This document shows positions 1 through 30,292 of a stretch of DNA of 64,000 nucleotides, piece by piece; position 1 is the first letter of the stretch; the number at the start of each line of letters is the position of its first letter. Location of the stretch: the IMG/VR virus record IMGVR_UViG_2061766007_000970. One strand, 5' to 3'. The notes below the pieces were generated by a model. That model ran no database searches. It had not been told where the DNA came from and worked only from the letters and a program-made list of their open reading frames with translations. This DNA comes from an uncultured virus (IMG/VR IMGVR_UViG_2061766007_000970) (taxonomy: Duplodnaviria > Heunggongvirae > Uroviricota > Caudoviricetes). The position numbers and the translations under genes were made by a program.

Positions 1-2
1 TA

Positions 3-164
3 TATTATGACGCTGATTCGTCTTGGAAAATGGTTCCTTTTTATAAGAATTGCTATAGAGAATTTAGATGCGTGGGCACTCGCAGCGTTACTGAAGACGA
101 AATATCTCGGACGTATGCCGTTCTTCTCGTTAATGGCGGCTCTTACACCGAAAGTCAAACGTAA
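3..164 (+). CDS. 3' end of a hypothetical (probably tail-associated) protein
   Basis: Open frame YYDADSSWK...YTESQT* whose TAA overlaps the AGGAG RBS of the next gene. Confidence 0.45.
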   Translation, partial: YYDADSSWKMVPFYKNCYREFRCVGTRSVTEDEISRTYAVLLVNGGSYTESQT

Positions 165-174
165 GGAGATTTAA

Positions 175-2928
175 ATGGCTACTGAAGTTGAATATGTCAA
201 TTATAAAGATTTTGTCGCCGATCTTGAATCGACTGAAGCTCCCGGCGTTGATGATGTAACCGTTGTCAGTAACGAAACTGACGGCCCGCGCACCATTCCC
301 GCCAATACCTCCGCATTAACGAATACCGCAACGGACTCCGATCTGACCACTGATGCGAGCTTCGAGCTGCAAACTGCAACCGGCAAAAAGAAGGTCCCTG
401 CGAACTTGCTTGCCAAAGCAAGCGATTTAGGTGTATTAGTATCGACGATAGACTTGAACGATTCGAGCCTATGGACTAATTCGCAAATCGACTCGACTAA
501 CGGTAGCGTTTCGGCTAGCGATTCTAGGTTGAGCACCCCGGATAGCTTGGCGCTTGCGCCCAATACGATATTCGATTACACGAAAGGTGCGAATATTACG
601 TCGCTTTCGATATATGTTTACGCTTACGAAGATGACGGAACCTTTATTTCCGGACTAATTTCGGTGGAGAATTTCCCGACGTGGATTCAGAGCCATCCCG
701 AAGCTAAACTATTTAAGTTGTCGATGATTCCGACAGGTTCTGTGGCTGTTATACCGTCCAACCTTGACGACATCGTGACATTCAATGCGGATGTGTACGT
801 GTATAACGTAGCGTCAAAAGAGTACGTCGATAACCTCTGCGATTCTTTGCAGGAGGCCATCGAAGACATCGAGACGGGAGATTTGAAAGTTGTTGTCGAT
901 TTGAATTCGTCTGCCAAGTGGCGTGACGGGGGGCTGAACACAACGACTGGCAATAGCGAGTCTAACTCGTCCAGGATGCACAGCGTCGATCTGTATCTTA
1001 CGGACGATTCTGTCATTTCGTTCACGATGAAATCCGGCTATTCGTTGCAGACGTGGAATGCGATGTGCTACAAGATGGACGGGACTTATCTTGGCTACGT
1101 GAACGCGACAAATATAACCGGCGGTGCCGTGTCCGTAATCAAGACCCAGTATCCTCTTACAGACAAGATAAAGATTGAAGTCAGACTGAGCAGCGGAACG
1201 GCGTCTGCGTCGAACGTGACTAACATACTTTCTTTTGCTGCGACTTTGTACGAGAATCCGTATGCGACGAAGGAATACGTCGATGCGGCCATTGCGGCTT
1301 CCGGCGGCGGTGGAGGTGGCGGCGGCGGAGGAGGTGATACGCCTACCGCTTATCTAGACCTCAACGACTCCAGTCTCTGGGGCACGTGGACTATCGACGG
1401 TAACTATGGCAATAGATACGATTCAGGCTCCAACGGGAAACGTCTCGCGACTAACGACATGCTTGAAATCGACCCGACGTCGGTTTTCTCTTTCACGAAG
1501 GGAGCCAGTGCGTCGTTCCTTGGAAATACCGTGTATTTCTACGCGTACACGGAAAACGGTACTTTCATCGCAGGACTTCAGAACGTTTCAACGTTGGCAA
1601 CGTTTGTCCAAAACAACCCTACCGCAAAGAAGTTCTATCTTGCCATAATCAACGTTTCCGGCGTCGAATGTTCTGCTGCGAACTTGTCCAACATAATCAC
1701 GTTCAACCAGCCAATCAAGGTTAGCTCCGATTACGCGACGAAGACGTATGTAGATACGGCCGTGGCGCAGTGCGTGGCTCCGCTTTCAGCAAGGATAGGC
1801 GCCATAGACGCCAAGATGACACGCTCGTATGACCTTAACGACCCGGACATGTGGGAAAACTACGGCATCGGTACTCACGACGGGTTGCCATATTCTGCCG
1901 ACGGTCGAATTTCGACAAAGCTTCTTGAGTTACAGGCAGGCAGCACGTTCACGATAACGATGAAGAGCGGAGTGACCGCATCAAATGCGAACTACTATTG
2001 CTACGCAGCGGACGGTTCGTACATCGACAACCCGCTGATTCAGCAGACCGGAAACGTTGTCACTATTGCTTCAATCTTGACCGCCAATCCGACTACGAAG
2101 TTTGTCCGGCTCGGATTTGTCTCGATTTCGGGGACTACCGCGAGTTCGGAAAACATCGCGAACATCGCCACGTTCGCGAATACGCTCTATACTGAACGTT
2201 ACGTCACCCACGAGGAATTGAAGGAGGCCGCTTCGGGCGGTTCGGGAAATTCCATCCTCAAGGGAAAGAAATGGTACGCTTGCGGTGACAGTTTCACCGA
2301 GGGTGTTTCGGACCCGTTCCCTGACGGAAAGTACCAAGGGCAGAACAAGTCCTATCCTCTCTATGTCGGTCTTCGTAACGACATGACGGTCGTAAACTTC
2401 GCGGTGTCCGGTTCCACGATCGGCTACAAGGCGGGAACGTCAACGGCGCAGGACAGCTTCACGTATCCATCTACGGGACGCCTGTACCAGATTCCGCAGG
2501 ACGTTGACTACATCACGTTGAAGTTCGGCATCAATGACGGTCCGGGACACAAGAACATCCCTCTTGGCACAATCAGCGACAACACGACAGAAACAGAGTA
2601 CGGTGCGTGGAACGTTGTCCTTGAGTATCTTATAACCAATTACCCGTTCGCAAAGATAGGCGTAATCGTGTCCAACGGTTGCGACAATACGGACTACCCG
2701 CAGGCGGCGAAGGATTGCGCCGAAAAATGGGGCGTCGCCGTGCTGGATGAAAACTTCGACTACAACGTCCCGCTGTTGCATCGTGTGAACGGCAAGCCGA
2801 ATGTTGCACAGGCGGCTCACGACCTGCGTTTGCAACAGTTCCGCGTAAGTGCCGACAACACGCACCCGAACGCTCATGCTATGGAATTTGAATCGACGTT
2901 TGTCGAAGAATTTTTAATGAGGCTTTAA
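175..2928 (+). CDS. Phage tail fibre/spike protein with four internal repeats and a C-terminal SGNH/GDSL hydrolase
   Basis: RBS AGGAG; repeats starting DLN(D/S)xxxW; A(S/T)K(E/T)YVD linkers; poly-Gly hinge; SGNH blocks GDSFT, GINDG, DNTHPN. Confidence 0.75.
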   Translation: MATEVEYVNYKDFVADLESTEAPGVDDVTVVSNETDGPRTIPANTSALTNTATDSDLTTDASFELQTATGKKKVPANLLAKASDLGVLVSTIDLNDSSLWTNSQIDSTNGSVSASDSRLSTPDSLALAPNTIFDYTKGANITSLSIYVYAYEDDGTFISGLISVENFPTWIQSHPEAKLFKLSMIPTGSVAVIPSNLDDIVTFNADVYVYNVASKEYVDNLCDSLQEAIEDIETGDLKVVVDLNSSAKWRDGGLNTTTGNSESNSSRMHSVDLYLTDDSVISFTMKSGYSLQTWNAMCYKMDGTYLGYVNATNITGGAVSVIKTQYPLTDKIKIEVRLSSGTASASNVTNILSFAATLYENPYATKEYVDAAIAASGGGGGGGGGGGDTPTAYLDLNDSSLWGTWTIDGNYGNRYDSGSNGKRLATNDMLEIDPTSVFSFTKGASASFLGNTVYFYAYTENGTFIAGLQNVSTLATFVQNNPTAKKFYLAIINVSGVECSAANLSNIITFNQPIKVSSDYATKTYVDTAVAQCVAPLSARIGAIDAKMTRSYDLNDPDMWENYGIGTHDGLPYSADGRISTKLLELQAGSTFTITMKSGVTASNANYYCYAADGSYIDNPLIQQTGNVVTIASILTANPTTKFVRLGFVSISGTTASSENIANIATFANTLYTERYVTHEELKEAASGGSGNSILKGKKWYACGDSFTEGVSDPFPDGKYQGQNKSYPLYVGLRNDMTVVNFAVSGSTIGYKAGTSTAQDSFTYPSTGRLYQIPQDVDYITLKFGINDGPGHKNIPLGTISDNTTETEYGAWNVVLEYLITNYPFAKIGVIVSNGCDNTDYPQAAKDCAEKWGVAVLDENFDYNVPLLHRVNGKPNVAQAAHDLRLQQFRVSADNTHPNAHAMEFESTFVEEFLMRL

Positions 2929-2943
2929 AAAAAGAGGTAAACT

Positions 2944-3477
2944 ATGTATAGTGTATATGCAGTTCTTGATTCGAGCTACACCTTCACAGGTAACTCAAGA
3001 CAGGCTTCGTTCGGTGTCGAAGCAGATGCAGCGCTGGAGTGTCACTCGCTTTCTTTTGCGCTTGCGGACGAGGTGCAGTTCAAGGGCGGTGAGTTTCGCA
3101 TCGTCCGTGCGAGGCTTTTGGCTTCGGGCGCTATTGGCCTCGCTCCCGGAAAGGAAAAAATCGCGGGCAACGTGAAGCTGAAATTCGTGACCGGAGGCGA
3201 GGATGCTTCGGGCTCATTCGAGCTTTCGTTCGTAAAGTGGGACGAGTGGGTTGATCAGGATTTACGCATCGGCGTCGCAGATTCCGCTGTTGGCAAGGAC
3301 TGCGAACTTGCGGTCATCAAGAACGGCACCACGTTCACGTGTGACGACTTCAATATCGACTCTGCGTACTCCGGCGAAACTGTCGTCCCGATGCTCGAGC
3401 TCGAAATCGAGGCGGAACGTGACTCCGTAACGAGGAGGATGACTCATGGGTATGTACAAAATAAGTTCGATATATAA
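2944..3477 (+). CDS. Hypothetical phage protein (beta-rich, likely structural)
   Basis: 177-aa ORF with GAGG RBS between the tail gene and the DGR target. Confidence 0.6.
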   Translation: MYSVYAVLDSSYTFTGNSRQASFGVEADAALECHSLSFALADEVQFKGGEFRIVRARLLASGAIGLAPGKEKIAGNVKLKFVTGGEDASGSFELSFVKWDEWVDQDLRIGVADSAVGKDCELAVIKNGTTFTCDDFNIDSAYSGETVVPMLELEIEAERDSVTRRMTHGYVQNKFDI

Positions 3478-4583
3478 GGGCGGTCACGGCGTGTACCGCT
3501 CCGGCATTTACAAGGGCGTGAACGTCGTTGTTTCGCGCCCCAATCAGGGCGACGCGGTGTACGTGCCGACCACGAGCGTGTATAGCTCGGCAACTCCTGG
3601 CAGCGGCGTTACGGAAGGCTCTGTGACGTTCGTCGCTGGCGATACCGTTGACGACGCCAAGATGACGGCGGCGGGCTTCACCGCGCTCGGCGTCGTGGCG
3701 AGCGTGAGCGGCAACAAGTGCTACGTGCTGTATAAGAACGTTGGTGCTGCCGGTCCTTTCTTTACCGGCGCGACATCTTCTGCATATACCATTCCGTCCG
3801 ACAAGCTTTCCGATGCAGACATTAATAAAATCAAGGCTGGAGACGCCGAGGATACGCAGGGTCTTGTCGGCTTCCGCGCAACCTGCCAAATAGACGTGCT
3901 GTTTGCGTGGCTGACGGGCCGAGGCGGCGAGAGAGAGAACGAGGGCTGGAACGGCGGTACTAACGGGTTGCGAAACGACTTTCTTAACGGGGCCGACTGG
4001 GGCCTGACACTCGGTCCTGCGGCATCCGACATTACGGCTCATGACACTGCGACGTACAAGGTGGCCGAAACTATCGCCAAGTTTGGTGCAGGCGAGGCGN
4101 NNNNNNNNNCGGTTGGCGTATCCGAGCTCGCTGGCGAGCAATTCCGTCGTCTTCCAGGATGGCAAGGCGGCGACGAAGGTACTTGTCGATGCGAATGAGG
4201 CCGACAATTCGGCCTTCTTCCGAGTTGCGCAATTTGCCTACAACCATAACCTGACATGGGGTTCATACGGTCAGTTTGCGAATGTGGACGGACTTCGTCG
4301 TGGTGACTGGTTCCAGCCTGGGCTCGGCATCGTACAGGACATCTTCAGGCACGTCAAGTACACGCTCGAGAACCCTGCCGCAGACATATTTAACAAGACG
4401 CTGTCGAAAATCGGAGGCGGCGCGCTACAGCTTAACACGAACTCGATCAATTCGCGCTACTGGCTTCCCTTTGTCCGTTCCCGCTCCCTTGGCTGGAATT
4501 TGTACGCCACCGGGGCTTTCTACGGCAGCTACCCCCTGTACACCAACGGTCGGGCGTTGTCGGTTGCGCTCTTGGAAATTTAA
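3446..4583 (+). CDS. DGR target protein 1 (C-terminal C-type-lectin-like variable domain); interrupted by N gap 4100-4109
   Basis: ORFs 3446-4198 and 4041-4583 join across the gap; GDWFQP and YWLP...GW...G...RALSV C-terminus; 3' end matches the TR. Confidence 0.85.
4465..4574 (+). repeat. DGR variable repeat VR1
   Basis: 110 bp colinear with TR 5490-5599; 19 mismatches, all at TR adenines. Confidence 0.95.
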
Positions 4584-4598
4584 CATTTAACCTTCTTC

Positions 4599-4621
4599 GG
4601 CGCGGCCTTCAAAGCCGCGCC
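4599..4621 (+). promoter_or_regulatory. GC hairpin/cruciform downstream of VR1 (DGR target-recognition element)
   Basis: GGCGCGGC-CTTCAAA-GCCGCGCC; identical copy after VR3 at 9799-9821. Confidence 0.8.
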
Positions 4622-4644
4622 CGCAACTAAAAAGGATCTCGAAA

Positions 4645-5469
4645 GTGTCAAAGAAAGTCGTCGATACTCCGATATACGTGGATACCTACAAGCTGGTTGG
4701 TATCGTGTACGGTCTGCGGTTTTCGATTCCAAAACGAGACAGGGCCGTTCTCGGCGACAGGCTCCTTGACGCGGCGACTGCGATGCTTGTCGAGTTCACT
4801 CTTTCTTACAAGTTGCGCGGAAACGAGAAGGTGGTTCACACGGACAGATTCCTCGCGCATTTTGAAGTGCTGAAAGGTCTGATGCGGCTGTGTATCGACA
4901 AGAAGGTGCTGCCTGGAAAAAAGTGCGTAGAATCATACGAATACATACAAAGAATTGACGATGGCATAGTCGCGTGGCGAGAAAGGATCGCCCGCGAAGT
5001 ACGGTCAACGACGGCATCAAACAATGGCCGCCATTCCGGCATGCAAGAACAGTTAAGAGGAGGCGANNNNNNNNNNAACTTGCGCTTCGCCATCCCGAAG
5101 CGCGACAGGGCTGTGCTTGGCGACAGGCTCCTTGACGCGGCGACTGCGATGCTTGTTGAGTTTACTCTTTCTTACAAGTTGCGCGGAAACGAGAAGGTTG
5201 TTCACACGGACAGGTTCCTTGCGCATTTCGAGGTGTTGAAAGGTCTGATGCGGCTGTGTATCGACAAGAAGGTGTTGCCCGGGAAAAAGTGCGTAGAATC
5301 ATACGAGTACATACAGAGAATTGACGATGGCATAATCGCGTGGCGAGAAAGAATTGCCCGCGAAGTACGGTCAACGGCGGCGTCAAACAATGGCTGTCGT
5401 TCCGGCGTGCAAGAACAGTTAAGAGGAGGCGACGGTATCATGAATACCAGTTCCGGCAGTGCGCCTTGA
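4645..5469 (+). CDS. avd: DGR accessory variability determinant (four-helix bundle, ~152 aa), present as two overlapping haplotype copies joined by Ns
   Basis: GTG start with AAGGA RBS; PIY..TYKL...PK.DR..LG.RL...GI.AW pattern; lies between VR and TR. Confidence 0.85.
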   Translation: MSKKVVDTPIYVDTYKLVGIVYGLRFSIPKRDRAVLGDRLLDAATAMLVEFTLSYKLRGNEKVVHTDRFLAHFEVLKGLMRLCIDKKVLPGKKCVESYEYIQRIDDGIVAWRERIAREVRSTTASNNGRHSGMQEQLRGGXXXXNLRFAIPKRDRAVLGDRLLDAATAMLVEFTLSYKLRGNEKVVHTDRFLAHFEVLKGLMRLCIDKKVLPGKKCVESYEYIQRIDDGIIAWRERIAREVRSTAASNNGCRSGVQEQLRGGDGIMNTSSGSAP

Positions 5470-5489
5470 TGCAGCTTCGGCTGCGGCGG

Positions 5490-5599
5490 TTCCCTTTGTC
5501 CGTTCCCGCTCCAATGGCTGGAATTTGAACAACAACGGGAATTTCAACGGCAACAACAACCTGAACAACAACAATCGGGCGTTGTCGGTTGCGAACTTG
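5490..5599 (+). ncRNA. DGR template repeat (TR)
   Basis: Intergenic between avd and RT; every adenine lies in an AAC/AAT codon in the target frame; matches three VRs. Confidence 0.95.
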
Positions 5600-5626
5600 A
5601 CTAATGCAGGCCGTTCGGTGGATAGT

Positions 5627-6167
5627 ATGGTATTGCTAGATGAATTGCTAGAGACCTATTTCGTTGCGCGTAGCAACAAGCGCCGCTCGAGAGACGCGGT
5701 ATTGTTCGAGATGTGCTTTGAAAAGTCTCTCGTCCGTCTATGCAATGACCTGAACGGGCGCAGGCTCGATACTACCCCGAACTATGCCTTCGTCGTTTTT
5801 AGTCCCAAGGCGAGAGAAATTTTCGCCACGGCGATGTACGTGCGCATCGTGCATCACTACCTGGACCGCAAGTTGCGCCCGATATACGAGGACGTGCTTT
5901 CGGACCGTACCTACAACAACCGCAAGGGAAAAGGCTTGCACGCCTGCATTGCGAACTTTCGCGAGGATGTGCGCGAGATGACCTGCAACTACACGCGTGA
6001 CGCCTGGATAGTCCACATNNNNNNNNNNCCGAGAGGATGTGCGCGAGATGACCTGCAACTACACTCGCGATGCCTGGATTGTCCACATGGACCTCAAGGG
6101 CTATTTTCCGAACGCGTACGTAGAGATTGCGCTTGCGCAGCAACTTGACCTGATTGAACGCTACTAT
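5627..6167 (+). CDS. DGR reverse transcriptase, N-terminal half (two overlapping contigs)
   Basis: AR.NKR, PK.REIFA, RIVHH, R.GKG, DLKGYF motifs; immediately downstream of the TR. Confidence 0.9.
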
Positions 6168-6177
6168 NNNNNNNNNN

Positions 6178-6639
6178 AAGCGACCCGACCGCGATCGGTA
6201 CGACCATCGAGGCCATCGATTCCCTCACGCAGAATACGAACGGCGAGATTACCGCGACGAAGAAGACTATCCGCTCCGGCACCACGTCGCAGACAGGTGT
6301 CGTGCAGCTCAAGGGCAGTATCGCTGCAAGCGAGAGCGACGATTCTAAGGCTGCGACCCCGAAGGCGGTGCGCGATGCAATCAATGCGCTGGATGTTGCC
6401 GAAGTCGGCGGTACAGGCAAGTACATCAAGGCCGTGCGCGAGGCGGACGGCAAGATTGTTGCGACCGAAGAGACGATGGACACGACGCCGACGGAAGGCT
6501 CGCAGAAGGCTGTCACGTCGGGCGGCGTGAAGGCTGCAATCGACGCCATAGACCCGGGCAATACCGGCATGGGCGAGGTGGTGGCCGCAGCGTTGAACGA
6601 TCTCGACGCGCGAGTCCGCGCCAACGAGGAGGCTGTATC
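6178..6639 (+). CDS. Phage tail-fibre protein fragment
   Basis: GTTSQTGVVQL...AATPKAV tail-fibre repeat motif; bounded by gaps. Confidence 0.65.
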
Positions 6640-6682
6640 NNNNNNNNNNNNNNNNNNNNNNNNNNNNNNNNNNNNNNNNNNN

Positions 6683-7391
6683 GGGGTCTCTCGACTAACG
6701 ACTTCACGGATGCGTACAAGGGCAACGTGGACGAGAACACGTCGGCAAGACACTCGCACACTAACAAGGCCCTGCTTGACAACANNNNNNNNNNAGACAA
6801 AGTCGAAGGCAAGGGTCTCTCGACTAACGACTTCACGGATGCGTACAAGGGCAACGTTGACGCGAACACGTCGGCAAGACACTCGCACACTAACAAGGCC
6901 CTGCTTGACAACATCTCGCAGTCGGACATCGACAACTGGAATTCAAAGCAGGCCGCCCTGTCGTTTATGACGGACGCCGAAGTAGATGCACTTTTNNNNN
7001 NNNNNGTGCAGACATTGCTTGTCGGCGGAGAAGATGTGGCCGCGAAACTTGACGGCAAGGTAGACAAGGTCGAAGGCAAGGGTCTCTCGACTAACGACTT
7101 CACGGATGCGCTGAAGAACAAGCTCAACGGCATCGCCGCAGGTGCGGAAGTCAACGTGCAGAGCGACTGGAACCAGACGGATNNNNNNNNNNCAATTTCA
7201 CCGACACGTACAAGGACAACGTGAACGCTAACACGTCGGCAAGGCACACGCACACGAACAAGACCCTGCTTGACAACATCTCGCAGTCGGACATCGACAA
7301 CTGGAATTCCAAGCAGGGCGCTATCAGTTGGATGACAGACTCCGAAGTAGATGCACTTTTCACCGCGGCCTGGAATGCCGCCAACGCGTAG
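6683..7391 (+). CDS. Fragments of a head/tail fibre protein with DKVEGKGLSTNDFT repeats
   Basis: Recurrent KVDKVEGKGLSTNDFTD and HSHTNKALLD motifs on four small contigs; stop at 7389-7391. Confidence 0.6.
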
Positions 7392-7403
7392 GAGGTGACT
7401 TAA

Positions 7404-7574
7404 ATGCCGAATACATACGATGACAAGGCCATCAAAGGCTCGCAGCTTGAAAGGCTGACTACGAAGGTGTTGGAGAAGGTCGTTGAGAAGCAGGATATAA
7501 TCGACGCTGCCTACGACTCGACGAACCACCGACTGAAATTGAACAACGTGACGATAACCGTCCCGAACGCATAG
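7404..7574 (+). CDS. Small hypothetical protein (56 aa, MPNTYDDKAI...)
   Basis: GGAGGTG RBS; its TAG overlaps the RBS of the next gene. Confidence 0.6.
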   Translation: MPNTYDDKAIKGSQLERLTTKVLEKVVEKQDIIDAAYDSTNHRLKLNNVTITVPNA

Positions 7575-7586
7575 GAGATTTAGACC

Positions 7587-9783
7587 ATGGCAAGCTATAT
7601 AAACAAGTACGACGATGCCGCCGACTATTCGGCGGACGCTTCTGCCCGTGCGGCTCTCGGCAAGAGCACGGTTTCGCTCGAGGCCGACTCCGGCAAGGTG
7701 CACTTCGACGGCGTGAACGTTGTTGTTTCGCGTCCCAAGCAGGGCGACGCGGTGTATGTTCCGACAACGAGCGTGTACAGCACGGCCACTCCTGGCAGCG
7801 GTGTTGCCGAAGGCTCGGTGACGTTCGTTTCCGGAGATACCGTTGACGACGCCAAGATGTCTGCGGCGGGATTTACCGCACTCGGTGTCGTGGCGAGCGT
7901 GCGTGGAAATAAGTGCTACGTGCTGTACAAGACTGTCGGTGCCGCAGTGCCGTTCTTTACTGGTGCGACTTCTTCCTCTTACACGATTCCGTCCGACAAA
8001 CTTTCCGATGCCGANNNNNNNNNNAGTTTCGCTCGAGGCCGACTCCGGCAAGGTGCACTTCGACGGAGTGAACGTCGTTGTTTCGCGTCCCAAGCAGGGC
8101 GACGCGGTGTATGTTCCGACCACGAGCGTGTACAGTGCGGCCACTCCGGGTAGCGGCGTTACGGAAGGCTCTGTGACGTTCGTCGCTGGCGATACCGTTG
8201 ACGACGCCAAGATGACGGCGGCGGGATTTACCGCACTCGGTGTCGTAGCGAGCGTGCGCGGAAACAAGTGCTACGTGCTGTACAAGACTGTCGGCGCTGC
8301 GGGGCCGTTCTTTACCGGCGCGACTTCTTCCTCTTACACGATTCCGNNNNNNNNNNTTCGGTGCCGAAGGGCCGTTCTTTACTGGTGCGACTTCTTCCTC
8401 TTATACGATTCCGTCCGACAAACTTTCCGATGCCGACCTTGCTAAAATCACGGCTGGCGACGCGAAGGATACTCAGGGACTTGTCGGCTACCGTGCGACA
8501 TGCAGCGTAGACGTGCTGTTCGCGTGGCTCACTGGTCGTGGCGGCGCGAGCAAGAACGAGGGGTGGAACGGCGGTACTAACGGGTTGCAGAACGACTTTC
8601 TTAACGGGGCTGACTGGGGTCTGACGCTTGGTCCTGCGGCATCCAGCATTACGGCTCATGACGCTACGACGTACAAGGTGGCCGAAACTATCGCCAAGTT
8701 TGGTGCAGGCGAGGCGGGCTTCCGAAAGTATCTTGAATCTCGTAGATTGGCGTATCCGTGCTCGCTGGCGAGCAATTCCGTCGTCTTCCAGGACGGCAAN
8801 NNNNNNNNNCGACTGGGGTCTGACGCTTGGTCCTGCGGAATCCAGCATTACGGCTCATGACGCCACGACGTACAAGGTGACTGAAACTATTGCCAAGTTT
8901 GGTACAGGCGAGGCGGGCTTCCGCAAATATTTGGAATCTCGCAGGCTTGCGTATCCGTGCTCGCTGGCGAGCAATTCCGTCGTCTTCCAGGACGGCAAGG
9001 CTGCGACGAAGGTGCTTGTCGATGCGAATGATGCAGACAATTCGGCCTTCTTCCGAGTTGCGCAATTTGCCTACAACCATGACCTGACATGGGGTTCCTA
9101 CGGTCAGTTCGCGAATGTAGACGGGCTTCGCNNNNNNNNNNGGACAATTCGGCATTCTTCCGAGTTGCGCAGTTCGCCTACAACCATAACCTGACATGGG
9201 GTTCCTACGGCCAGTTTGCGAATGTGGACGGACTTCGCCGTGGCGATTGGTTCCAGCCTGGGCTCGGCATCGTGCAGGACGTCTTCAGGCACGTCAAGTA
9301 TACGCTCGAAAGCCCTGCTGCCGACGTGTTCAACAAGACGCTGTCGAAAATCGGCGGCAGCACNNNNNNNNNNCGTGGCGATTGGTTCCAGCCCGGGCTC
9401 GGTATCGTGCAGGACATCTTCAGGCACGTCAAGTATACGCTCGAGAGTCCTGCTGCCGACGTATTCAACAAGACGCTGTCGAAAATCGGCGGCAGCACGC
9501 TTCAGCTTAACACTAACTCGAACGATTCGCGCTATTGGCTTCCCTTTGTCCGTTCCCGCTCCGGTGGCTGGAGTTTGCCATACAGCGGGTTTTTCACCGG
9601 CAGCACCCCCATGCACTACATCAGTCGGGCGTTGTCGGTCGCGCTCTTGGATATTTAACCTTCCACCTTATTCGNNNNNNNNNNAATGGCTGGAATTTGA
9701 ACAGCACCGGGTATTTCATCGGCGGCTCCAACCCCCTGACCTACAACTTTCGGGCGTTGTCGGTCGCGCTCTTGGATATTTAA
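7587..9783 (+). CDS. DGR target protein 2, tiled as overlapping fragments of at least two haplotypes
   Basis: AGGAG RBS; body from GVNVVVSRP onward nearly identical to target 1; ends in VR2 or VR3. Confidence 0.85.
9540..9649 (+). repeat. DGR variable repeat VR2
   Basis: 110 bp colinear with the TR; mismatches at adenines plus three non-A differences. Confidence 0.9.
9685..9774 (+). repeat. DGR variable repeat VR3 (5' part in gap)
   Basis: Adenine-position mismatches to the TR, one extra codon, and GTC for TR GTT. Confidence 0.9.
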
Positions 9784-9798
9784 CCTTCCACCTTATTC

Positions 9799-9821
9799 GG
9801 CGCGGCCTTCAAAGCCGCGCC
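9799..9821 (+). promoter_or_regulatory. GC hairpin downstream of VR3
   Basis: Identical to 4599-4621 although the flanks differ. Confidence 0.8.
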
Positions 9822-9843
9822 TGCACACCAAAAGGATCTCCGC

Positions 9844-10176
9844 GTGTCAAAGAAAGTCGTCGATACACCGATATACATAGATACCTACAAGCTCGTGGGT
9901 ATCGTGTATAACCTGCGCTTTGCGATACCGAAGCGCGATAGGGCCGTGCTCGGCGACAGGCTTCTTGATGCCGTGACGGCAATGCTCGTTGAGTTTACGC
10001 TGTCATACAAGTTGCGCGGAAACGAGAAGGTAGTCCACACTGACAGATTCCTCGCNNNNNNNNNNACTCGTGGGCATCGTGTATAACCTGCGCTTTGCGA
10101 TACCGAAGCGCGATAGGGCCGTGCTTGGCGACAGGCTCCTTGACGCCGTGACGGCAATGCTCGTTGAGTTTACGCT
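9844..10176 (+). CDS. avd: Avd, partial additional haplotype copies
   Basis: MSKKVVDTPIYIDTYK..., near-identical protein to the 4645 copy with many synonymous changes. Confidence 0.8.
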
Positions 10177-10259
10177 NNNNNNNNNNGTTATTTCTGTCGC
10201 CGTATTTTTCTTTGGAAAAATACTTTTCGACGAAAATGATTGGAAGGGTAAAAAATAGT

Positions 10260-10727
10260 ATGTCGAAAGTTGTTCTTGAAAGTGCTAAAATTTTAAAGCC
10301 TTTAAATGTTAGAAATTTTACATATAAAGAAACCAATTTTTACGAGTTTCAGCGTGAATTTCAGATGCTAATCCATACCAATCGAGGTGATTACTTGTGG
10401 ACCGTTCTTCCTCCGTACACGAGTAATTGCGGCTCGATTCCGTGGCTTGGCCAAAAGGTTTTGCGTGTAAAATCTTTTGATCCTGACAACGAATTGCAAA
10501 ACGCTTTTTTCTTTTTCCACGACGACCTTTACCAAAAAAAAGGCTACAACATTTTCAATCGCGATGATTCAGACGCTCTTTGCCGTGGCGGTCTTCGCGA
10601 GGCTGGGTTGTCTCGATTCCAGGCATCTACGATAGACTTCTTTTTGATGCTCGGTGCTTGGGGACACTGGGGCGATAATGAATATCACAACAAAGATTGC
10701 TTGAGTAGTCTTGTACCTTGCAAATAA
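10260..10727 (+). CDS. DUF1353-like phage protein
   Basis: SIP..., HDDLY, R.DSD.L.R..LR pattern; homologous to 33924-34385. Confidence 0.6.
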   Translation: MSKVVLESAKILKPLNVRNFTYKETNFYEFQREFQMLIHTNRGDYLWTVLPPYTSNCGSIPWLGQKVLRVKSFDPDNELQNAFFFFHDDLYQKKGYNIFNRDDSDALCRGGLREAGLSRFQASTIDFFLMLGAWGHWGDNEYHNKDCLSSLVPCK

Positions 10728-10853
10728 CTTGTGCCTAAATCATTGTAAACACTAACTGCAAAAACGATATTCGTCTTGAGAGATTAAGAGAGCGGCTGAA
10801 TTCGGAAATTCCGGAGGAAGCCTTTAAAACACCACAATCAAGGAGATGATGAT

Positions 10854-11360
10854 ATGGTGTATCAAGACGACAACAAAGAGTACGCCTCTAAAGGCGTCGG
10901 TACTGCCGGTCTTACGACCGGTATCATCGGAACTGTCCTCGGTTCCGGAATTCTTAACAATGGCATTGCTGGCATTTTCGGCGGTAACCAAAATCCGACT
11001 GCAAGCCCTGTGTATCAGTTGGCTCAGAAGGATAACGAAATCGCACTGCTCAAAGCTCAGCAGTATTCGGACAACAAGTTTTTCGCTTTGTCCGAAAAAG
11101 TTGCAGGGCTTGAGACGAAGATTGTTGCAATCGAAACTGCTGCACCGCTTCGCGACAAGATTCTGTCTGACAGTATCTTGAATTTGCAAAAGCAGATGTC
11201 TGAAATCTCTGTGCGTAGGGTCCCGAACTACGCACTTGATCCGGGATATGGCCCTGCGTTCGTTGCCCCGATGCCGCCTCCGGGCTACGCATTGCAGCCT
11301 ATCGTGCAGAACGGCACTACAGTCACTCCGGCCGCGACTACTACGGCTCAGGCTGCATAG
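10854..11360 (+). CDS. Hypothetical protein: Gly-rich hydrophobic N-terminus (YASKGVGTAGL), coiled coil, Pro-rich tail
   Basis: AAGGAG RBS; first gene of a tight three-gene operon. Confidence 0.75.
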   Translation: MVYQDDNKEYASKGVGTAGLTTGIIGTVLGSGILNNGIAGIFGGNQNPTASPVYQLAQKDNEIALLKAQQYSDNKFFALSEKVAGLETKIVAIETAAPLRDKILSDSILNLQKQMSEISVRRVPNYALDPGYGPAFVAPMPPPGYALQPIVQNGTTVTPAATTTAQAA

Positions 11361-11374
11361 TGTGGAGGTGATGC

Positions 11375-11749
11375 ATGCTTATTTCGTTTGACAAGGCTTT
11401 CGATGGTCTTATTGCCTTTATGGCCGAACAGACTTCGAAAATAACGGACAACATTGTAAAGTGGTTCTCTATCGGTGGACTCGCTGTCGCGAAAATCAAT
11501 CCTGGACCGTTGAAAAATACAATACGTCCTGTGCTTGAAATGCTCAGTGTCTTGCATGATGGGATGGTTGACATCGACCTGCTGAAGGTTGCTTTCGATG
11601 AGGCCTTTAAAGCTGTTCCTGAAATCACCTATCGCAAGTTTGTATTCAACAAAGACGATGCTTGTGGTCTTGTCGCGAAATTGCGTGAGATCGCTTCTGC
11701 CGAAATGCGGCAGACGCAGATGACTGCGTCTGGCACGGAGGTTGGATGA
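11375..11749 (+). CDS. Hypothetical protein (operon gene 2)
   Basis: GGAGGTG RBS; ATGA overlap with the next gene. Confidence 0.75.
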   Translation: MLISFDKAFDGLIAFMAEQTSKITDNIVKWFSIGGLAVAKINPGPLKNTIRPVLEMLSVLHDGMVDIDLLKVAFDEAFKAVPEITYRKFVFNKDDACGLVAKLREIASAEMRQTQMTASGTEVG

Positions 11750-11973
11750 TGACTGACAAAATGAAAAAAGTGCTTGAACGCACAGAAGAAACGCTTTGCC
11801 GTCACCTGGAAGACTTGAACGATCAAGTTGATGCAAACGGTGGCCGCATGAAGGATCACAAGGTTCTTGATGGCATCAAGGATGCTCTTAAGTCCTTGTG
11901 GTACAAAAAGGAAATTATGGGCGGTGCTGACGTTGTCAAGACGGCGGCAAAATCGATGCCTGCCATGATGTAA
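11746..11973 (+). CDS. Hypothetical helical protein (operon gene 3)
   Basis: GGAGG RBS; followed by a terminator. Confidence 0.7.
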   Translation: MMTDKMKKVLERTEETLCRHLEDLNDQVDANGGRMKDHKVLDGIKDALKSLWYKKEIMGGADVVKTAAKSMPAMM

Positions 11974-11992
11974 CTTATCAGTGGATTCTTCG

Positions 11993-12028
11993 AGACGACT
12001 TGCAGTAATGCGAGTCGCCTTTTTTTTT
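11993..12028 (+). terminator. Rho-independent terminator
   Basis: CGACTTGCA-GTAA-TGCGAGTCG stem followed by T9. Confidence 0.75.
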
Positions 12029-12077
12029 ATGTGCCTAAAATGTGTCGAACATTTATTTATTATTTACTTTGACGAGC

Positions 12078-12491
12078 ATGACAATCGTTGATTATGCTTT
12101 GACATTTTTGGGTCGCCCGTACATTTGGGGTGGTGACGGATCCGGTAAGTACTGTGGCGGTTTTGATTGCTCTGGGCTTGTTGTCGAATGCTTACGTGCT
12201 TTTGGCCATGTGGACTGCGATTTGACCGCACAAGGTCTGTATGATTATTTGACTGGCTGTGGTTGCGAGAAAGCAGAATATCTTTATTGGAAGCCGTCTG
12301 ACGTACTCTTTTTCGGCAAAAGCAGGAACTGCATTACTCATGTAGCTATAGCTATTGGTGATGGCCTGATGGTCGAGGCTGGAGGCGGCGGATCCAAATG
12401 CAAAACCTTAGAGGCTTCTACAGGAATGGTTCGGGTGCGTCCGATATTTTACAGAAAAGACTTTGTGGCGGGTTTAAGGATGCCTGATTAG
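12078..12491 (+). CDS. NlpC/P60 cell-wall peptidase (putative endolysin)
   Basis: G.PYIWGG, GFDCSGLV, THVAI motifs. Confidence 0.9.
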   Translation: MTIVDYALTFLGRPYIWGGDGSGKYCGGFDCSGLVVECLRAFGHVDCDLTAQGLYDYLTGCGCEKAEYLYWKPSDVLFFGKSRNCITHVAIAIGDGLMVEAGGGGSKCKTLEASTGMVRVRPIFYRKDFVAGLRMPD

Positions 12492-12724
12492 AAGTATGCA
12501 CTTTTTTATACACTTTTTAATTAGCGTTTTTCGAAATTGAACGAAAATAAGTAAAAGTGTGTGAAAGTAAATAAATATGATTGTATGTGAAAAATACAAG
12601 TAATTAAAACAAAATGGCAAAAATGGGCGAAAATAAAAATTTTTACTTTCTTTCGCTCGCAAAACATTATACTTTCGTGATTCTCAACAGAATCAAGTCT
12701 TTAAAGTTGTGTATNNNNNNNNNN

Positions 12725-13521
12725 TTTTGCAGACGAAGAGTGGTATTCCGTTGTACAACTGCGGTGTTGGTGGCGAAAATTCGAAGGATATTATTGCTCG
12801 TCAAGGTGGTGATATTATGATGCTTTTCACGAGCGATAACCCGAACATCGTAATTCCCGCGACTACTGATGCTGTAGAAATCAGAACGAACAATATAAAA
12901 ACACTTTTTGGAAATTATGCCCATCCGCTTGCTCAGCCTGGTGGCTACGTGAACCCCGTCACACTTAACGGCATCAAGGGAACTCTGTCGCTATCGTCTA
13001 GCAAATATTACTTTACCCGCAGTGAAGCGGGTGAAGCCAAGACCATTGATAGGGATGCAAGGATTGTGACCTATGGCGATGTAAAGTATAACTCTCCATA
13101 TCTTATGATAATCTTTATTGGCCAAAATGGCGGGTGGAGCGATGCTGCTGAACTCATCGACCAGCACAATAAGATGATAGCCCATTCCAGTGCGAAGCAC
13201 GTACTTGTTCTAGGGTTGTCGAGTGGTACTACTGAAAGCAGGGCAGATTATGAAGCTGCGATGAAGGCTGAATTTGGGCGGTACTTTGTGAGCATCCGTC
13301 AGTATCTTGCACATCCTATCTATGACGAGAACAATCAAATTGTGTCTTGTTACGGACTTGCGGACGAAGGACTTACTCCGAGTGCGAACGATTTAGAAAA
13401 AATAGCAATCGGTCAAGTCCCGAGCCAATTGCTTGCAGACGGAGTTCACTATACGGACGCGACAAAGACGGTTATCGGAAACATGCTCTACAAGTATTGT
13501 CAAGACCTCGGTATTTTCTAA
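12725..13521 (+). CDS. C-terminal part of an SGNH-like hydrolase/tail protein
   Basis: N.GVGGE.S..I.ARQG, IFIGQNGG, DGVHY; 5' end in gap. Confidence 0.65.
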
Positions 13522-13809
13522 GACGATCGATCGTTGGCGTAATGGTATTCGCAAGTGCATTGATTCTAATTTGTCTTTAATGGAATATCCGAGGATTGTG
13601 TAATGATAAACGAACACGCAGAATGGCGAAAGTTCTTGCAGCCGCTTGTGACGGGGCTTGTCACCCTCATGGCGATTGCTACGCTGTACTTGCAACGAAG
13701 TGCAATTTAAAAAAAGGTGTAAAAAATGGATTTGTAACGGCTAGATTCTTATGAATGGTCTCCGCTGTGCAACAGCGAAGTTGCTGTAGACAATCCGTAA
13801 CGAGGCTGT

Positions 13810-14025
13810 ATGGACATAGCGTCAGTATTCGAAACAATCGGCAACGTGCTTGGCTATCCCGCCATGCTCTTAATCTTTTGGCTTTACATCAAGGTAAAGG
13901 ATACCGAGAAGCGTTTGCAGCAGGGTGACTCCGACATGAAGGAGATGCTCAAACTCATCACCGACATACGCATCGACGTTGCCGTGCTTCGCGGAAAGAA
14001 AGAGGATAGGGAGGGCGAAAAGTGA
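13810..14025 (+). CDS. Holin-like protein (one TM helix + coiled coil)
   Basis: Hydrophobic N-terminus, charged tail; homologous to 33661-33927; in the lysis module. Confidence 0.55.
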   Translation: MDIASVFETIGNVLGYPAMLLIFWLYIKVKDTEKRLQQGDSDMKEMLKLITDIRIDVAVLRGKKEDREGEK

Positions 14026-14229
14026 CCAAGACAATTATCGCATTATCAGTTTGCAACATAATAGGATTGATTTTGATCCTTATTCCGGAAATGTGACATG
14101 GGGTTAGTTTGTTCTATANNNNNNNNNNCTTTTTTATACACTTTTTCAAAAAAAAGAAAGTCCGGGATTAATCCCGGACCGCTAGTCCTTGAACCAATTA
14201 TAGCATCATGGTTCGCACTCGTCAACCGT

Positions 14230-15228
14230 CTATTTGTAAACTTCGCTTATTGCCTTTTCGGAATCGGTGTCGAGGATGTGACCGTATGTGTCGATTGTCA
14301 TCGTGATGTTTTCGTGACGCATCAAGTCCCTGACTACCATAAGATTTATACCCTTATTCGCTCGTAGGATGTTCGATCCAAAAGAGTGCCTGAAGCGATG
14401 TGCATGAGCTTTTCCTGGGAATCCTTCCGGAATGGCTTTTTGGGCAGACTTCCTCAGCTTGTACTTCGAAAATTTAAAATTCCACTCGCCGTCATAACGG
14501 TCGATTTCTCTCTTCAATCTTGGACACACTGGGATTGTTGCCGGCTTGTCGCCTTTACCGACAACGTGTATTTTCCCATCGTAGATTTTTTCTGGCCGCA
14601 TTGCGACGGCTTCGCTAACGCGTAAACCGGCAAACGCCATGAGAGACCACAAGAGACGTGTCTTTGGATCGGGTGCGTTCGCGATTATCCTGTCGATTTG
14701 GTCTATCGTCCAAAAGTCTCGGTGAGTTTTAGTTACTTTTCTTTTGGGAATCGCTTTTTTTATTGGATTTTTGGGAAGCAGTTCGAGTACATCGACGACG
14801 AAATTGAAAAAGGTCGCAAGAATGGTTTTCTTGTGCATATATGTTCGCGAGGAATTTTGTTCGGTATTTTTCAGAAACGCCTCATTTATTTCTTTTGTCG
14901 TTATTGAAGAAACGGGCCTGTCGAAAAGTGGCCTGATTGAATCTACACCATTGACTATTACATACACGCTTGCAGGCTTTACGCCCTTGGATCTTTCGTA
15001 CTGTTCGAATTTGATAACGGCTTCTCCTAGAGTCATTGTTTCGGCTTTGTCTTTGATGTCAAAGTCGCCGGCTTTCAGCCGTTCTTGCATGCGAAACTTG
15101 GCTTCGGTTTTGCTTGACGTGCCGAGGCTAAAATAATGGGTTTTCCCTTTTGCGTGCGGGTCGGGAACTCGTGCGTACCAAGTTTGTATGTTTTTTGATT
15201 TGTTCTTTTGGACTAGCGTTACGGCCAT
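14230..15228 (-). CDS. int: Tyrosine integrase (phage A)
   Basis: GLRVSE, GKGDK, HRFRH, RHENI..T..Y catalytic motifs. Confidence 0.95.
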   Translation of the reverse strand: MAVTLVQKNKSKNIQTWYARVPDPHAKGKTHYFSLGTSSKTEAKFRMQERLKAGDFDIKDKAETMTLGEAVIKFEQYERSKGVKPASVYVIVNGVDSIRPLFDRPVSSITTKEINEAFLKNTEQNSSRTYMHKKTILATFFNFVVDVLELLPKNPIKKAIPKRKVTKTHRDFWTIDQIDRIIANAPDPKTRLLWSLMAFAGLRVSEAVAMRPEKIYDGKIHVVGKGDKPATIPVCPRLKREIDRYDGEWNFKFSKYKLRKSAQKAIPEGFPGKAHAHRFRHSFGSNILRANKGINLMVVRDLMRHENITMTIDTYGHILDTDSEKAISEVYK

Positions 15229-15231
15229 GTG

Positions 15232-15480
15232 TTACCTTGTCTTTCTTCTTGATGCCATTATTCGTTTGGTTCTTCTGTCGAGCCATGTTTCTACAGCGGC
15301 TTTGCTAAAAAGATATCCTCCGGGATGGATTTTAGGTTCGATGTTGTTGTCGCGGATTTCTTTGGACAAGGTTGTCTGCTTGACGCCCATAGCATCCATA
15401 GCTCCGATGGTGGTATAGTATTCGTCATCGAGATAGATGACTGTCTTTTGCGAAAAATCAAGAGATGTTTTTGCTGTCAT
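15232..15480 (-). CDS. Excisionase-like HTH protein
   Basis: Small basic HTH directly upstream of the integrase. Confidence 0.65.
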   Translation of the reverse strand: MTAKTSLDFSQKTVIYLDDEYYTTIGAMDAMGVKQTTLSKEIRDNNIEPKIHPGGYLFSKAAVETWLDRRTKRIMASRRKTR

Positions 15481-15533
15481 TTTTTTTCTCCTTCTTTTAC
15501 AATAAAATCTCTAAACTGATATTGAAAATTTCT

Positions 15534-19225: not shown

Positions 19226-19228
19226 ATT

Positions 19229-19738: not shown

Positions 19739-19739
19739 T

Positions 19740-20438: not shown

Positions 20439-20441
20439 AGT

Positions 20442-22118: not shown

Positions 22119-22121
22119 CGG

Positions 22122-25956: not shown

Positions 25957-26056
25957 ACACTATAAAAACTGGATGGGGTGTGGCGACCGTCGAAACTTTT
26001 GGGCCTAAAAAATGAAATAGGAAAAAACAGAACTTATATTTTAAAGGAGAAAAAAA

Positions 26057-26619: not shown

Positions 26620-26632
26620 CGTTCGGAACGAC

Positions 26633-26666: not shown

Positions 26667-26667
26667 T

Positions 26668-29581: not shown

Positions 29582-30292
29582 GTCGGCGACGACGAGGATG
29601 ATCTGAAGTACATGATGGCCTCGTGTATGCGTGCCGACCCTGCACGGCATTGCGGCGTATATGTTCCGCGTTCAAACTGGTACGCGATTGCTCCGGAAAA
29701 GAGTCTGTTCAACAAGCCGGTAGGCACGGGAGGTGCGATAGGATTTCTTTGCTGGCAAAACGCGATGGGTCACTATATCAACAATGTCGTGAAGTGGCTG
29801 CAGACGTTTGGTTTTTTACGTGTCGTTGTATTCGTCGACGATATCTATATCGTGACTACCGACAAGGCGAAATTCCTCTCGATGATGCCGCAGATACGCG
29901 CAAGGCTTTCCGCTTTGAAGGTACGGCTGAACGAAAAGAAATTCTACTGCCAGCACTATTCGAAAGGCGTGCACATGCTCGGCAGTCGCATAAAATTCGA
30001 CCGCGAGTATGCCGACAACGGCGCGGTGCGTCGAGCATTTGCGAAGATCGAGGAATGGAGGAACGAACGGAGCATCCATTGGAAAATCGCTCGTCTGCTT
30101 TCGTCGATGAATACCTACATCGGAATTTTCAGAACAAAGAATATGCGGAATGTCGCCGAGCGATTCAGGCATGAAGTGCTGACATCGTTCAGGCGGTATT
30201 TGCAATGGAATGACAAGAAGAACTGCTTTGCGCTGCGTGCCCGCTACGGTTTTCGTGCGGTGCTTCGGCGCAAGTACAAGGTGAGGCTGTGA
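29582..30292 (+). CDS. DGR reverse transcriptase, C-terminal half
   Basis: KSLF...GGAIGFLCWQ, FVDD, LNEKK..QH.SKGV.MLG, S.NTY.G; plausibly continues the fragment ending at 6167. Confidence 0.9.
   Translation, partial: VGDDEDDLKYMMASCMRADPARHCGVYVPRSNWYAIAPEKSLFNKPVGTGGAIGFLCWQNAMGHYINNVVKWLQTFGFLRVVVFVDDIYIVTTDKAKFLSMMPQIRARLSALKVRLNEKKFYCQHYSKGVHMLGSRIKFDREYADNGAVRRAFAKIEEWRNERSIHWKIARLLSSMNTYIGIFRTKNMRNVAERFRHEVLTSFRRYLQWNDKKNCFALRARYGFRAVLRRKYKVRL

Follow-up and report, generated by a model that had tools for sequence, protein, structure and literature searches.

A diversity-generating retroelement, probably of BPP-1 type and from temperate phages of the bovine rumen, on a mixed-strain scaffold

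Results

A retroelement cassette behind a tail-fibre gene

The uncultured-virus record IMGVR_UViG_2061766007_000970 was analysed here as one stretch of 64,000 nucleotides (nt), which we call the window. Between positions 3446 and 6167, downstream of a gene for a tail-fibre protein, the window carries the parts of a diversity-generating retroelement (DGR): a target gene ending in a variable repeat (VR), a GC-rich hairpin, avd, a template repeat (TR) and the beginning of a gene for a reverse transcriptase (RT). Further copies of some of these parts lie between 7587 and 10176, and the RT gene resumes far downstream. The features of the cassette are as follows; types A and B are two phage types described below.

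3446..4583, + strand: target gene 1, type A, with a short N-terminus; a gap at 4100-4109 hides about 9 codons
4465..4574, + strand: VR1; mutable part 4488-4549, then a GC-rich element at 4550-4568, then an end like the initiation of mutagenic homing (IMH) site
4599..4621, + strand: GC hairpin after VR1; stem GGCGCGGC, 7-nt loop, GCCGCGCC, an 8-bp stem
4645..5066, + strand: avd allele a, linked to VR1 and cut by the gap at 5067; Pfam bAvd-like, E 4.1e-5, 24.5 bits
5077..5469, + strand: avd allele b, linked to the TR and RT; 90.6% identical to allele a over a 352-nt overlap
5490..5599, + strand: TR; 15 AAY codons that hold all 30 adenines
5627..6018, + strand: RT codons 1-130, 96% identical to the RT of the relative L001 (below)
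6030..6167, + strand: RT codons 112-157, a second allele overlapping the preceding piece, placed by alignment to the L001 RT
7587..9658, + strand: target gene 2, type B, with a long N-terminus like that of L001; six overlapping, non-identical pieces
9540..9649, + strand: VR2; 23 mismatches to the TR, 20 of them at adenines
9685..9774, + strand: VR3; its 5' part is lost in the gap at 9675-9684, and it has one codon more than the TR
9799..9821, + strand: GC hairpin after VR3, with the same stem as the one after VR1
9844..10176, + strand: avd alleles c (9844-10055) and d (10066-10176), 5' parts only
29582..30292, + strand: RT codons 158-393, with the motifs IGFLCWQ and FVDD and a stop codon; colinear with L001; phrog_1423, E 8.6e-17

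From the fibre onwards, the parts are arranged (target/VR, hairpin, avd, TR, RT) as in phage BPP-1. An earlier note on this DNA, made from its letters, had proposed a BPP-1-type DGR in the tail module with the parts from target to RT in this order. Our analysis agrees on both counts: a fibre gene lies upstream, the RT falls in the DGR clade, and the Avd and target models resemble the Avd and C-type-lectin folds, as set out below. The hairpin at 4599-4621, folded as DNA, has an energy of -11.9 kcal/mol (z -2.7), and its stem recurs after VR3 and in the relative IMGVR_UViG_3300031998_000136 (L001). BPP-1 also has a GC hairpin downstream of its VR; the loop of the one described here is 7 nt.

Differences between template and variable repeats fall on adenines

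The TR aligned to VR1 without gaps over 110 nt, with 19 mismatches that all (19/19) lie at TR adenines, as the earlier note had observed. Given a TR composition of 30 A, 30 C, 26 T and 24 G, the hypergeometric probability of this outcome is P=5.7e-14. All 30 TR adenines sit in the 15 AAY codons of the target reading frame. NNY codons specify any of 15 amino acids but never a stop, which is the usual logic of DGRs. VR1 itself forms the 3' end of the open reading frame (ORF) of target 1, ending shortly before the stop codon (9 nt; stop at 4581-4583).

The final two VR1 mismatches, at 5594/5595 (TR AA, VR1 CT), are the same in five aligned VRs, and each of these positions has a single base in eight VRs; the leucine that matches them is invariant in 42 protein homologues. 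Because they are invariant across VRs, we take them to mark a permanent distinction between the two repeat ends, VR and TR, and not to stem from mutagenesis; VR1 therefore has 17 mutagenic differences, and the mutable codons number 14. The count of 14 variable codons with 28 adenines given previously thus fits the mutable part, and the derived figures of 4^28 DNA and 15^14 protein variants are arithmetically right for 14 codons, but the whole TR has 15 AAY codons and 30 adenines. In BPP-1 the VR end (IMH) is distinguished from the TR end (IMH*), a distinction to which the 5594/5595 difference, by analogy, appears to correspond. At the 3' end of the VRs a 19-nt GC-rich element common with the TR is followed by ends that differ from the TR identically in all VRs. 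The GC-rich stretch, the IMH-like end and the hairpin are thus all present as putative target-recognition elements.

The three VRs of the window all differ from one another, as had been stated. Three of the VR2 mismatches lie outside adenines, namely a T>C at TR position 101 and two C>A changes; because the TRs of three relatives carry the same base at position 101, we read the T>C as a strain polymorphism of the TR. The extra codon of VR3 amounts to three bases, so that the TR of the window could have served as its template only with an indel, and on this alignment VR3's own TR must carry four AAC codons where the window TR has three. Within the window the 5' constant part of the repeat has three matches and the 3' part four, one pair of which is the TR.

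The scaffold is assembled from several strains

The window contains 43 runs of N, most exactly 10 long, and four of these gaps (at 4100, 5067, 6019 and 6168) fall in the stretch 3446-6167/6168. On self-comparison, the stretches flanking many of the gaps overlap without being identical (82-96%), and parts of the cassette occur twice: the avd sequence at 4715-5066 recurs at 5081-5432 (90.6% identical) and the RT stretch at 5960-6018 recurs at 6030-6088 (91.5% identical). Further along, 7193-10176 is made up of eight mutually overlapping pieces that are 82-96% identical and non-identical throughout. Only codons 1-157 of the 393 RT codons lie within 3446-6167, and the gene resumes at 29582, 23.4 kb further along the scaffold. 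The cassette at 3446-6167 had been called complete; with its RT split across 23.4 kb, four N gaps and a duplicated avd, it is not.

We compared this arrangement with that of L001, a gapless contig of 51.8 kb with its target at 4835-6043, avd at 6106-6564, TR at 6585-6694 and RT at 6722-7903 (393 amino acids, aa). The window corresponds to it as follows.

Window 5077-6018: L001 6172-7113
Window 6029-6166: L001 7054-7191
Window 29583-30541: L001 7194-8152

The three RT pieces (codons 1-130, 112-157 and 158-393) tile the 393-aa L001 RT with no residue missing and no stop or frameshift, and for that reason we take the RT to be intact in the population. The earlier note had named a frameshifted RT in a closed assembly as the mark of a dead relic; neither stop nor frameshift was seen in the pieces when checked against the gapless L001. 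The spacing from VR to TR is 365 nt shorter in L001 than in the window, which is the exact length of the duplicated avd part. Because their avd alleles are only 90.6% identical, the piece with VR1 and the piece with the TR come from different strains. Two literal readings of the scaffold were rejected: an actual insertion of 23 kb in the RT gene, because an N gap lies at each of its borders, and an actual tandem duplication of avd, because the gapless relative has one avd and the correspondingly shorter spacing.

PHROG annotation of 44 ORFs placed the rest of the window in two parallel series of genes, I (10187-29572) and II (29582-64000), which are 68-74% identical where they match. We conclude that the scaffold, judged by its sequence, mixes several haplotypes of this cassette and no fewer than two types of phage. 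On the simplest reading, type A would comprise 1-6167 and 29582 onward, and type B 6178-10176 and probably also 10187-29572. The order in 6178-10176 (fibre C-terminus, 56-aa ORF, target 2, hairpin, avd 5' part) is that of L001. Because every junction is an N gap, this two-type layout is one that we infer. A mixture of haplotypes would make the RT look truncated and avd duplicated, and would set three VRs side by side.

Taken with the adenine-specific repeats, these data make it very probable, in our judgement, that the cassette is a genuine BPP-1-type DGR of temperate tailed phages of the bovine rumen, lying on a mixed-strain scaffold, and that the VRs belong to sister cassettes with near-identical TRs of their own. 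We weighed two other accounts of the three VRs. The first holds that targets 1 and 2 are paralogues in the same phage, with a single TR serving both. Such an account is in keeping with the one TR found in the window and with targets that differ in their N-termini and neighbours, as expected of paralogues, and phage DGRs of this kind are documented in excerpts of PMC8143477 and PMC10743442 for the Bacteroides uniformis (Bacuni) phages or the nd4/nd12 phages. However, downstream of target 2 there is another hairpin and another avd, and hence a whole second cassette, and target 2 sits inside the block that splits the RT. The gapless L001 has one VR and one TR in 15 kb, and VR3 could not be templated by the window TR without an indel. 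Finally, the TR-RT region is 94% identical to that of L001, with 1-3 of 110 TR positions different, so that it is conserved enough for collapse by an assembler. We consider a two-target DGR improbable.

The second account posits one genome with one complete DGR, in which VR1, VR2 and VR3 are alleles of one locus in a diversifying clonal population; the statement in the earlier note that three VR alleles had been captured amounts to the same. The VRs do differ mostly at TR adenines, with VR1 and VR2 differing at 19/30 TR-adenine positions and at 3/80 others. The hypervariability of DGRs is known to break assemblies at VRs, and in the metagenomic contigs of the likely source sample, described below, the constant 5' part of the repeat has a summed depth of 195, which drops to 33 inside VR1. 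Yet sequence outside the VRs differs too. The upstream flanks of VR1 and VR2 are identical at 146/166 positions (88.0%), and the hairpin with the 5' part of avd is identical at 236/282 (83.7%) between sister copies, so that the VRs lie on separate pieces with flanks 12-16% different. VR1 and VR3 are each followed by a hairpin and avd allele of their own (the VR2 piece ends before the hairpin), VR3 carries the extra codon, the N-terminus of target 2 and the genes upstream of it are not those of target 1, and the pieces that overlap in 7193-10176 are non-identical throughout. We regard alleles of one locus as slightly less probable even than a two-target DGR. That VR1 and VR2 diverge far less outside adenines than their flanks do fits repeated overwriting of the VRs by a conserved TR.

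The annotated genes of the two series are listed here; both integrases are tyrosine integrases.

12042-12488: series I, NlpC/P60-type lysin
14233-15228, - strand: series I, integrase
10187-29572: remainder of series I, with early genes including ParB-like, exonuclease, SSB and HicB-like genes, and without an RT C-terminus, tail fibre or terminase
29582-30292: series II, RT C-terminus
30289-32647: series II, tail fibre
34279-34857: series II, lysin (NlpC/P60-type)
40439-41410, - strand: series II, integrase
61022-63618: series II, terminase
29582-64000: remainder of series II, with early genes including a PAPS reductase and others

Each block of early genes has one HicB-like antitoxin gene (26671-27084 and 57586-57999, both on the - strand), with surroundings (26633-27455 and 57533-58317) that are 73.8% identical. 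The PAPS reductase-like gene, of phage type, lies at 43939-44937 (- strand; phrog_424, E 1.9e-45).

The variable repeats have diversified across the lineage

A pattern scan of the IMG/VR viral contigs with an 18-mer returned 17 loci, of which 9 belong to the family (3 TRs and 6 VRs) and 8, being unrelated, were dropped. For counting we used the eight gapless VRs, leaving out VR3 with its gap and indel, and took the window TR as reference. Across these eight, 138 of 153 mismatches lie at TR adenines. Every adenine of the 14 mutable codons varies (28/28), with 2-4 bases at each, and the two adenines of the IMH-like end never do. Of the 15/153 mismatches elsewhere, 7 reflect the TR polymorphism at position 101. 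Non-adenine positions of the VRs thus stay TR-like, which argues for repeated overwriting of VR by TR. For the three TR-VR pairs on the same contig, we counted 14 adenine and 0 other differences, 17 and 1, and, for the pair L018/L017, 19 and 4.

The TRs themselves have changed little: that of the window differs from the TRs of relatives at 1 position (L012; 108 nt compared), 1 (L023) and 3 (L018), with flanks diverging by 6-16%. At positions 24-25 the L018 TR, on the contig IMGVR_UViG_3300031853_000611 (L002), has TCT in place of the first AAT codon, and its own VR has GAT there; one mutable codon has thus apparently gone from this TR in the time after its last retrohoming. All nine VRs (three in the window, six in IMG/VR) differ from one another on direct reading of the sequences.

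The same positions stand out in the protein. Among 42 homologues of at least 75% identity, the 14 AAY positions make up all but three of the 17 columns with the greatest variability, with 7-13 different residues each and an entropy of 2.4-3.4 bits, compared with a mean of 0.48 for residues 1-340. Between them, glycines, a tryptophan, leucines and a phenylalanine are invariant or nearly so.

At the level of samples we examined assembled Logan contigs. A run search returned 20 runs from 11 studies, and four were examined, all labelled bovine gut or bovine metagenome. X1 and X2 derive from a single sample, the likely source of the window; X5 and X6 belong to two further studies. In these runs the VR region is represented by contigs of 100-450 nt. 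The VR1 allele is present in X1 and X2 with no differences at a depth of 33-50, and contigs covering the constant 5' part of the repeat sum to 144-195. Two avd-region contigs coexist in X1 at depths of 53 and 35, the second with 56 differences. Among the contig differences listed, those inside the VR are at 4507 and 4515, both TR-adenine positions and too few for a test. The X1 and X2 contigs show co-existing haplotypes, not diversification.

Least probable of the three alternatives is a decayed DGR, with historical TR/VR differences and retrohoming at an end: the evidence for activity is from sequence comparison, the RT motif departs from the SQ signature and the L018 TR has lost its first AAT codon, but the RT pieces tile their relative without stop or frameshift, the TR differs at only 1-3 positions from three relatives' TRs (at one position from two of them) between flanks 6-16% diverged, only 15 VR mismatches fall outside adenines, 7 of them by TR polymorphism, and all nine VRs, read by eye, are different. 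Diversification in the lineage is well supported by these comparisons. The support for the earlier description of an active diversification system thus concerns the lineage, not this sample.

The target is predicted to be a lectin-fold protein of the tail-fibre module

The genes around the two targets that belong to the tail-fibre module are:

175..2928, + strand: tail-fibre protein of 917 aa with a C-terminal GDSL/SGNH esterase domain; type A context, upstream of the cassette
6179..7391, + strand: tail-fibre C-terminal pieces, several overlapping alleles; type B context; Pfam Phage_fiber_2, self-matches, colinear with the L001 fibre at 4389-4591

The 917-aa protein matches phrog_5240 (tail fiber, E 5.7e-18) and Pfam Lipase_GDSL_2 (35.6 bits against a cutoff of 32.9). 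The target of type A lies behind this GDSL fibre and a 177-aa ORF, and that of type B behind the Phage_fiber_2 fibre and a 56-aa ORF. Their N-termini are alternatives, short in type A (3446-3514) and long in type B (7587-7709), which looks like modular exchange of the virion-attachment end. The N-terminus of target 1 recurs in P0037, an independently assembled full-length protein of 384 aa (86% over 218 aa). In the type B context, the fibre motif 'KVEGKGLSTNDFTDAYKGNV...NTSARHSHTNKALLDNISQSDIDNWNSKQ' occurs in four pieces at 6683-7391, which are either true tandem repeats or stacked alleles. An isolated piece at 12727-13518, after the gap at 12715, matches the C-terminus of an esterase-bearing tail protein (phrog_28673, E 5.4e-87). 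The esterase domains of 175-2928 and 12727-13518 may be receptor-destroying domains of depolymerase or deacetylase type.

Neither the target pieces nor the L001 target matched any Pfam family at E<=0.01, DUF1566 and Fib_succ_major included. The fold was modelled, as the earlier note had suggested, on the L001 orthologue (49 sequences), and the model reached a pLDDT of 93.7. Compared with 48,161 chains by VIA-align, it was most similar to C-type lectins: 4eps_A, a domain of the C-type-lectin kind (C-lec), gave Z 14.7 (root-mean-square deviation, rmsd, 3.2 over 203 aligned residues), 8q4e_A gave Z 9.4, and about 40 C-type lectins filled ranks 5-50 at Z 4.3-5.5. Among DGR variable proteins, TvpA scored Z 4.9, Mtd 4.8 and TaqVP 4.5. 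According to an excerpt of PMC10743442, 4EPS is the C-lec of a terminal pilin from Bacteroides ovatus, and its surface beta-hairpin resembles those found in phage targets that are hypermutated. In our model, the final beta strands (E372-376 and E381-387) hold the 14 variable residues, which lie at 372-392 in the L001 protein. We thus predict a C-type-lectin fold for the target, its VR lying on a C-terminal element exposed at the surface.

The Avd model and a reverse transcriptase with a WQ signature

An AlphaFold model of the Avd orthologue (17 sequences) has four helices and a pLDDT of 79. Foldseek matched it to 4dwl_A, titled 'Avd molecule from Bordetella bacteriophage DGR', with TM 0.83, rmsd 1.9 and probability 1.00, and also to the Avd chains of 8ub7/8ubb; 2gsc ranked first (E 2.3e-4). 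From this model we predict that the avd product is an Avd four-helix bundle like that of the Bordetella phage.

Between the avd stop codon and the TR lies another hairpin (5471-5484; -13.7 kcal/mol, z -2.2), a GCAGC-UUCG-GCUGC tetraloop with CGCC/GGCG as its outer stem. L001 and L002 have this hairpin unchanged, and it may be part of the DGR RNA. Just 3' of the TR (5596-5700), the RNA folded no better than its shuffles (z +0.99). No Rfam family was found over 3000-10400 at E<=1, and a tRNA search of the window found none.

The RT begins at the ATG at 5627, 27 nt past the TR end. Pfam RVT_1 scored 30.1 bits on the C-terminal piece in the window and 44.5 on the L001 RT (cutoff 29.6). The sole sequence relative in the PDB was 8ub7_A (E 1.1e-8), titled 'Diversity-generating retroelement (DGR) ribonucleoprotein reverse transcriptase'. 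A tblastn search of 50,697 phage records gave 39 matches; the best were Bacteroides uniformis phages F2, F4 and F1, at 33-35% over the full length, and BPP-1 brt was among the 39, with 29% identity over residues 5-141. By sequence, the RT thus belongs to the DGR clade, and it adjoins the TR, although in the window it is split in three across gaps.

Its signature motif, IGFLCWQ, ends in WQ, where brt has IGSLTSQ and the Bacuni F2 RT has IGNLFSQ; its catalytic motif is FVDD, compared with YMDD (brt) and YVDD (Bacuni). The more distant RT of L004 (L004 3311-4534) has IGRLLWQ. Excerpts of PMC7826257 and PMC3521204 define the DGR RT signature as (I/V/L)GxxxSQ, and the variants SP, SH, NQ, PA, AQ and VQ, found in 15/155 elements, make up the list in the excerpt of PMC3521204, from which WQ is absent. 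A full-text literature search for 'GxxxWQ' found no paper. We counted motif endings with a rough regular expression in the best 150 of 2,846 hits (representatives of 50%-identity clusters) and obtained 91 SQ, 23 WQ, 8 AQ and 17 others, with no motif found in 11. Among these best 150, the WQ forms cluster towards the closest relatives.

A possible Fibrobacter host

Among 99 homologues of the target, an organism name was attached to one cluster only, that of a Fibrobacter sp. metagenome-assembled genome (MAG), whose homologue is a partial protein, 92% identical, annotated by NCBI on a 4.9-kb contig. This binning-based hint lends weak support to a Fibrobacter-like host. The earlier proposal of a probably Fibrobacter-like host has this one homologue in its favour. 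Against the representative genomes of GTDB the RT gave one unrelated match of 30% identity only, with no prophage relative and no host assignment.

Discussion

The cassette described here is a standard phage DGR and a further case of a known architecture. It resembles BPP-1 in its gene order (tail fibre, target with a 3' VR, avd, TR, RT, then lysis genes), in the adenine-specific VR/TR differences, the AAY codons and the GC-rich shared 3' element with diverging ends, in an Avd fold that matches 4dwl, and in an RT whose N-terminal third is 29% identical to brt. It is unlike BPP-1 in having an RT of 393 aa rather than 328 aa (about 25% identity overall) with the motifs IGFLCWQ and FVDD rather than IGSLTSQ and YMDD, in a distance from the TR to the RT start of 27 nt compared with 144 nt, in a TR of 110 nt compared with 134 nt, and in a target that is not Mtd-like in sequence and reaches only Z 4.8 in fold.

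The Bacuni F1/F2/F4 phages have the closest RTs among the phage records searched. They share the local order target, avd, TR, RT, then lysis and recombinase genes, and a temperate-type genome with a recombinase, and their targets have a C-lec of the DUF1566/Fib_succ_major/pilin-tip kind with weak pairwise similarity to ours at the C-terminus (E 8e-4). In contrast, the Bacuni RT keeps IGNLFSQ and YVDD, and the host phylum is probably different. According to excerpts of PMC8143477, Bacuni phages have two targets, which carry Pfam DUF1566/Fib_succ_major; the window target matches no Pfam family.

Closer to the window are L001 and L002, which have the same cassette at 84-94% DNA identity and TRs that differ from that of the window at 1/110 and 3/110 positions, respectively. 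L001 has the intact order fibre, target, avd, TR, RT, fibre. The targets of both have the long type B N-terminus, unlike window target 1 with its short type A N-terminus and different upstream genes. In the more distant L003 and L004 (RT 42-45% identical), whose gene order also agrees, two repeats separated by 695-826 nt lie directly upstream of the RT. By structure the target model was closest to BACOVA_04982 (PDB 4EPS, Bacteroides ovatus pilin tip, Z 14.7), which is 15% identical in sequence and belongs to a bacterial type V pilus rather than to a phage tail. G001, the nearest virus record, had no match to the cassette. In the literature on DGRs with Fibrobacter or rumen phages we found no description of the cassette, though large surveys (PMC8144416 and bioRxiv 10.1101/2024.11.15.621889) may catalogue it.

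Several points weigh against a genuine, BPP-1-type DGR made up of sister cassettes. The order of the scaffold could be a real, unusual arrangement, as all critical junctions lie in N gaps, and VR2 has two C>A differences at TR positions other than adenines. Only contigs were compared, so that VR variation was counted across loci and not within one haplotype. The target model had no Foldseek match in the PDB at E<=0.001 (best 4eps, 1.4e-2), and Z values below 5 to solved DGR variable proteins are within the background range of VIA-align. Avd scores below threshold for Pfam bAvd-like (24.5-27.3 bits against a gathering cutoff of 40), and searches of the PDB by sequence found no relevant relative of it, either with a single sequence or with a 17-sequence profile (three rows, E>1). 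Finally, the domain-4 signature of the RT is IGFLCWQ and not (I/V/L)GxxxSQ, with I, G and Q kept and S replaced by W.

If the cassette works as BPP-1 does, the model from which we take each step, an RNA that runs from the 3' end of avd through the TR into the 5' part of the RT gene would be reverse-transcribed by an RT-Avd complex, and the RT would misincorporate opposite adenines of the template. Guidance would come from the GC-rich 3' element that VR and TR share, from the IMH-like end and from the GC hairpin further downstream, and the 14 NNY codons in the C-terminal beta-hairpin of a C-type-lectin domain would be randomised. The randomised domain would be part of a protein of the tail-fibre module, presumably one that binds the receptor.

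For the analysis of other viral metagenomes, strain-mixed scaffolds of this kind mean that an assembler break at a VR, with haplotypes then placed next to each other, can mimic 'several alleles' or a 'truncated RT'. For the biology of rumen phages, the cassette adds a DGR in a habitat, and possibly in a host, Fibrobacter, where few have been described individually; our literature search found no paper on a DGR of a Fibrobacter phage.

The WQ variant is one small departure from the textbook DGR. We propose, at odds that we judge a little better than even, that the RT represents a distinct IGxxxWQ/FVDD subclade that keeps adenine mutagenesis and that the cassette is a portable module shared between the two phage types. 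The subclade would include rumen phages and would be found in at least 23 of the best 150 clusters, and the module would be 85-95% identical in types that are 68-74% identical elsewhere, joined to different fibres through alternative N-termini of the target. If this is true, the signature serine would be dispensable, and a bulky tryptophan would sit beside the template/dNTP pocket. The variant could then matter for motif-based DGR finders and for work on adenine infidelity at the RT active site.

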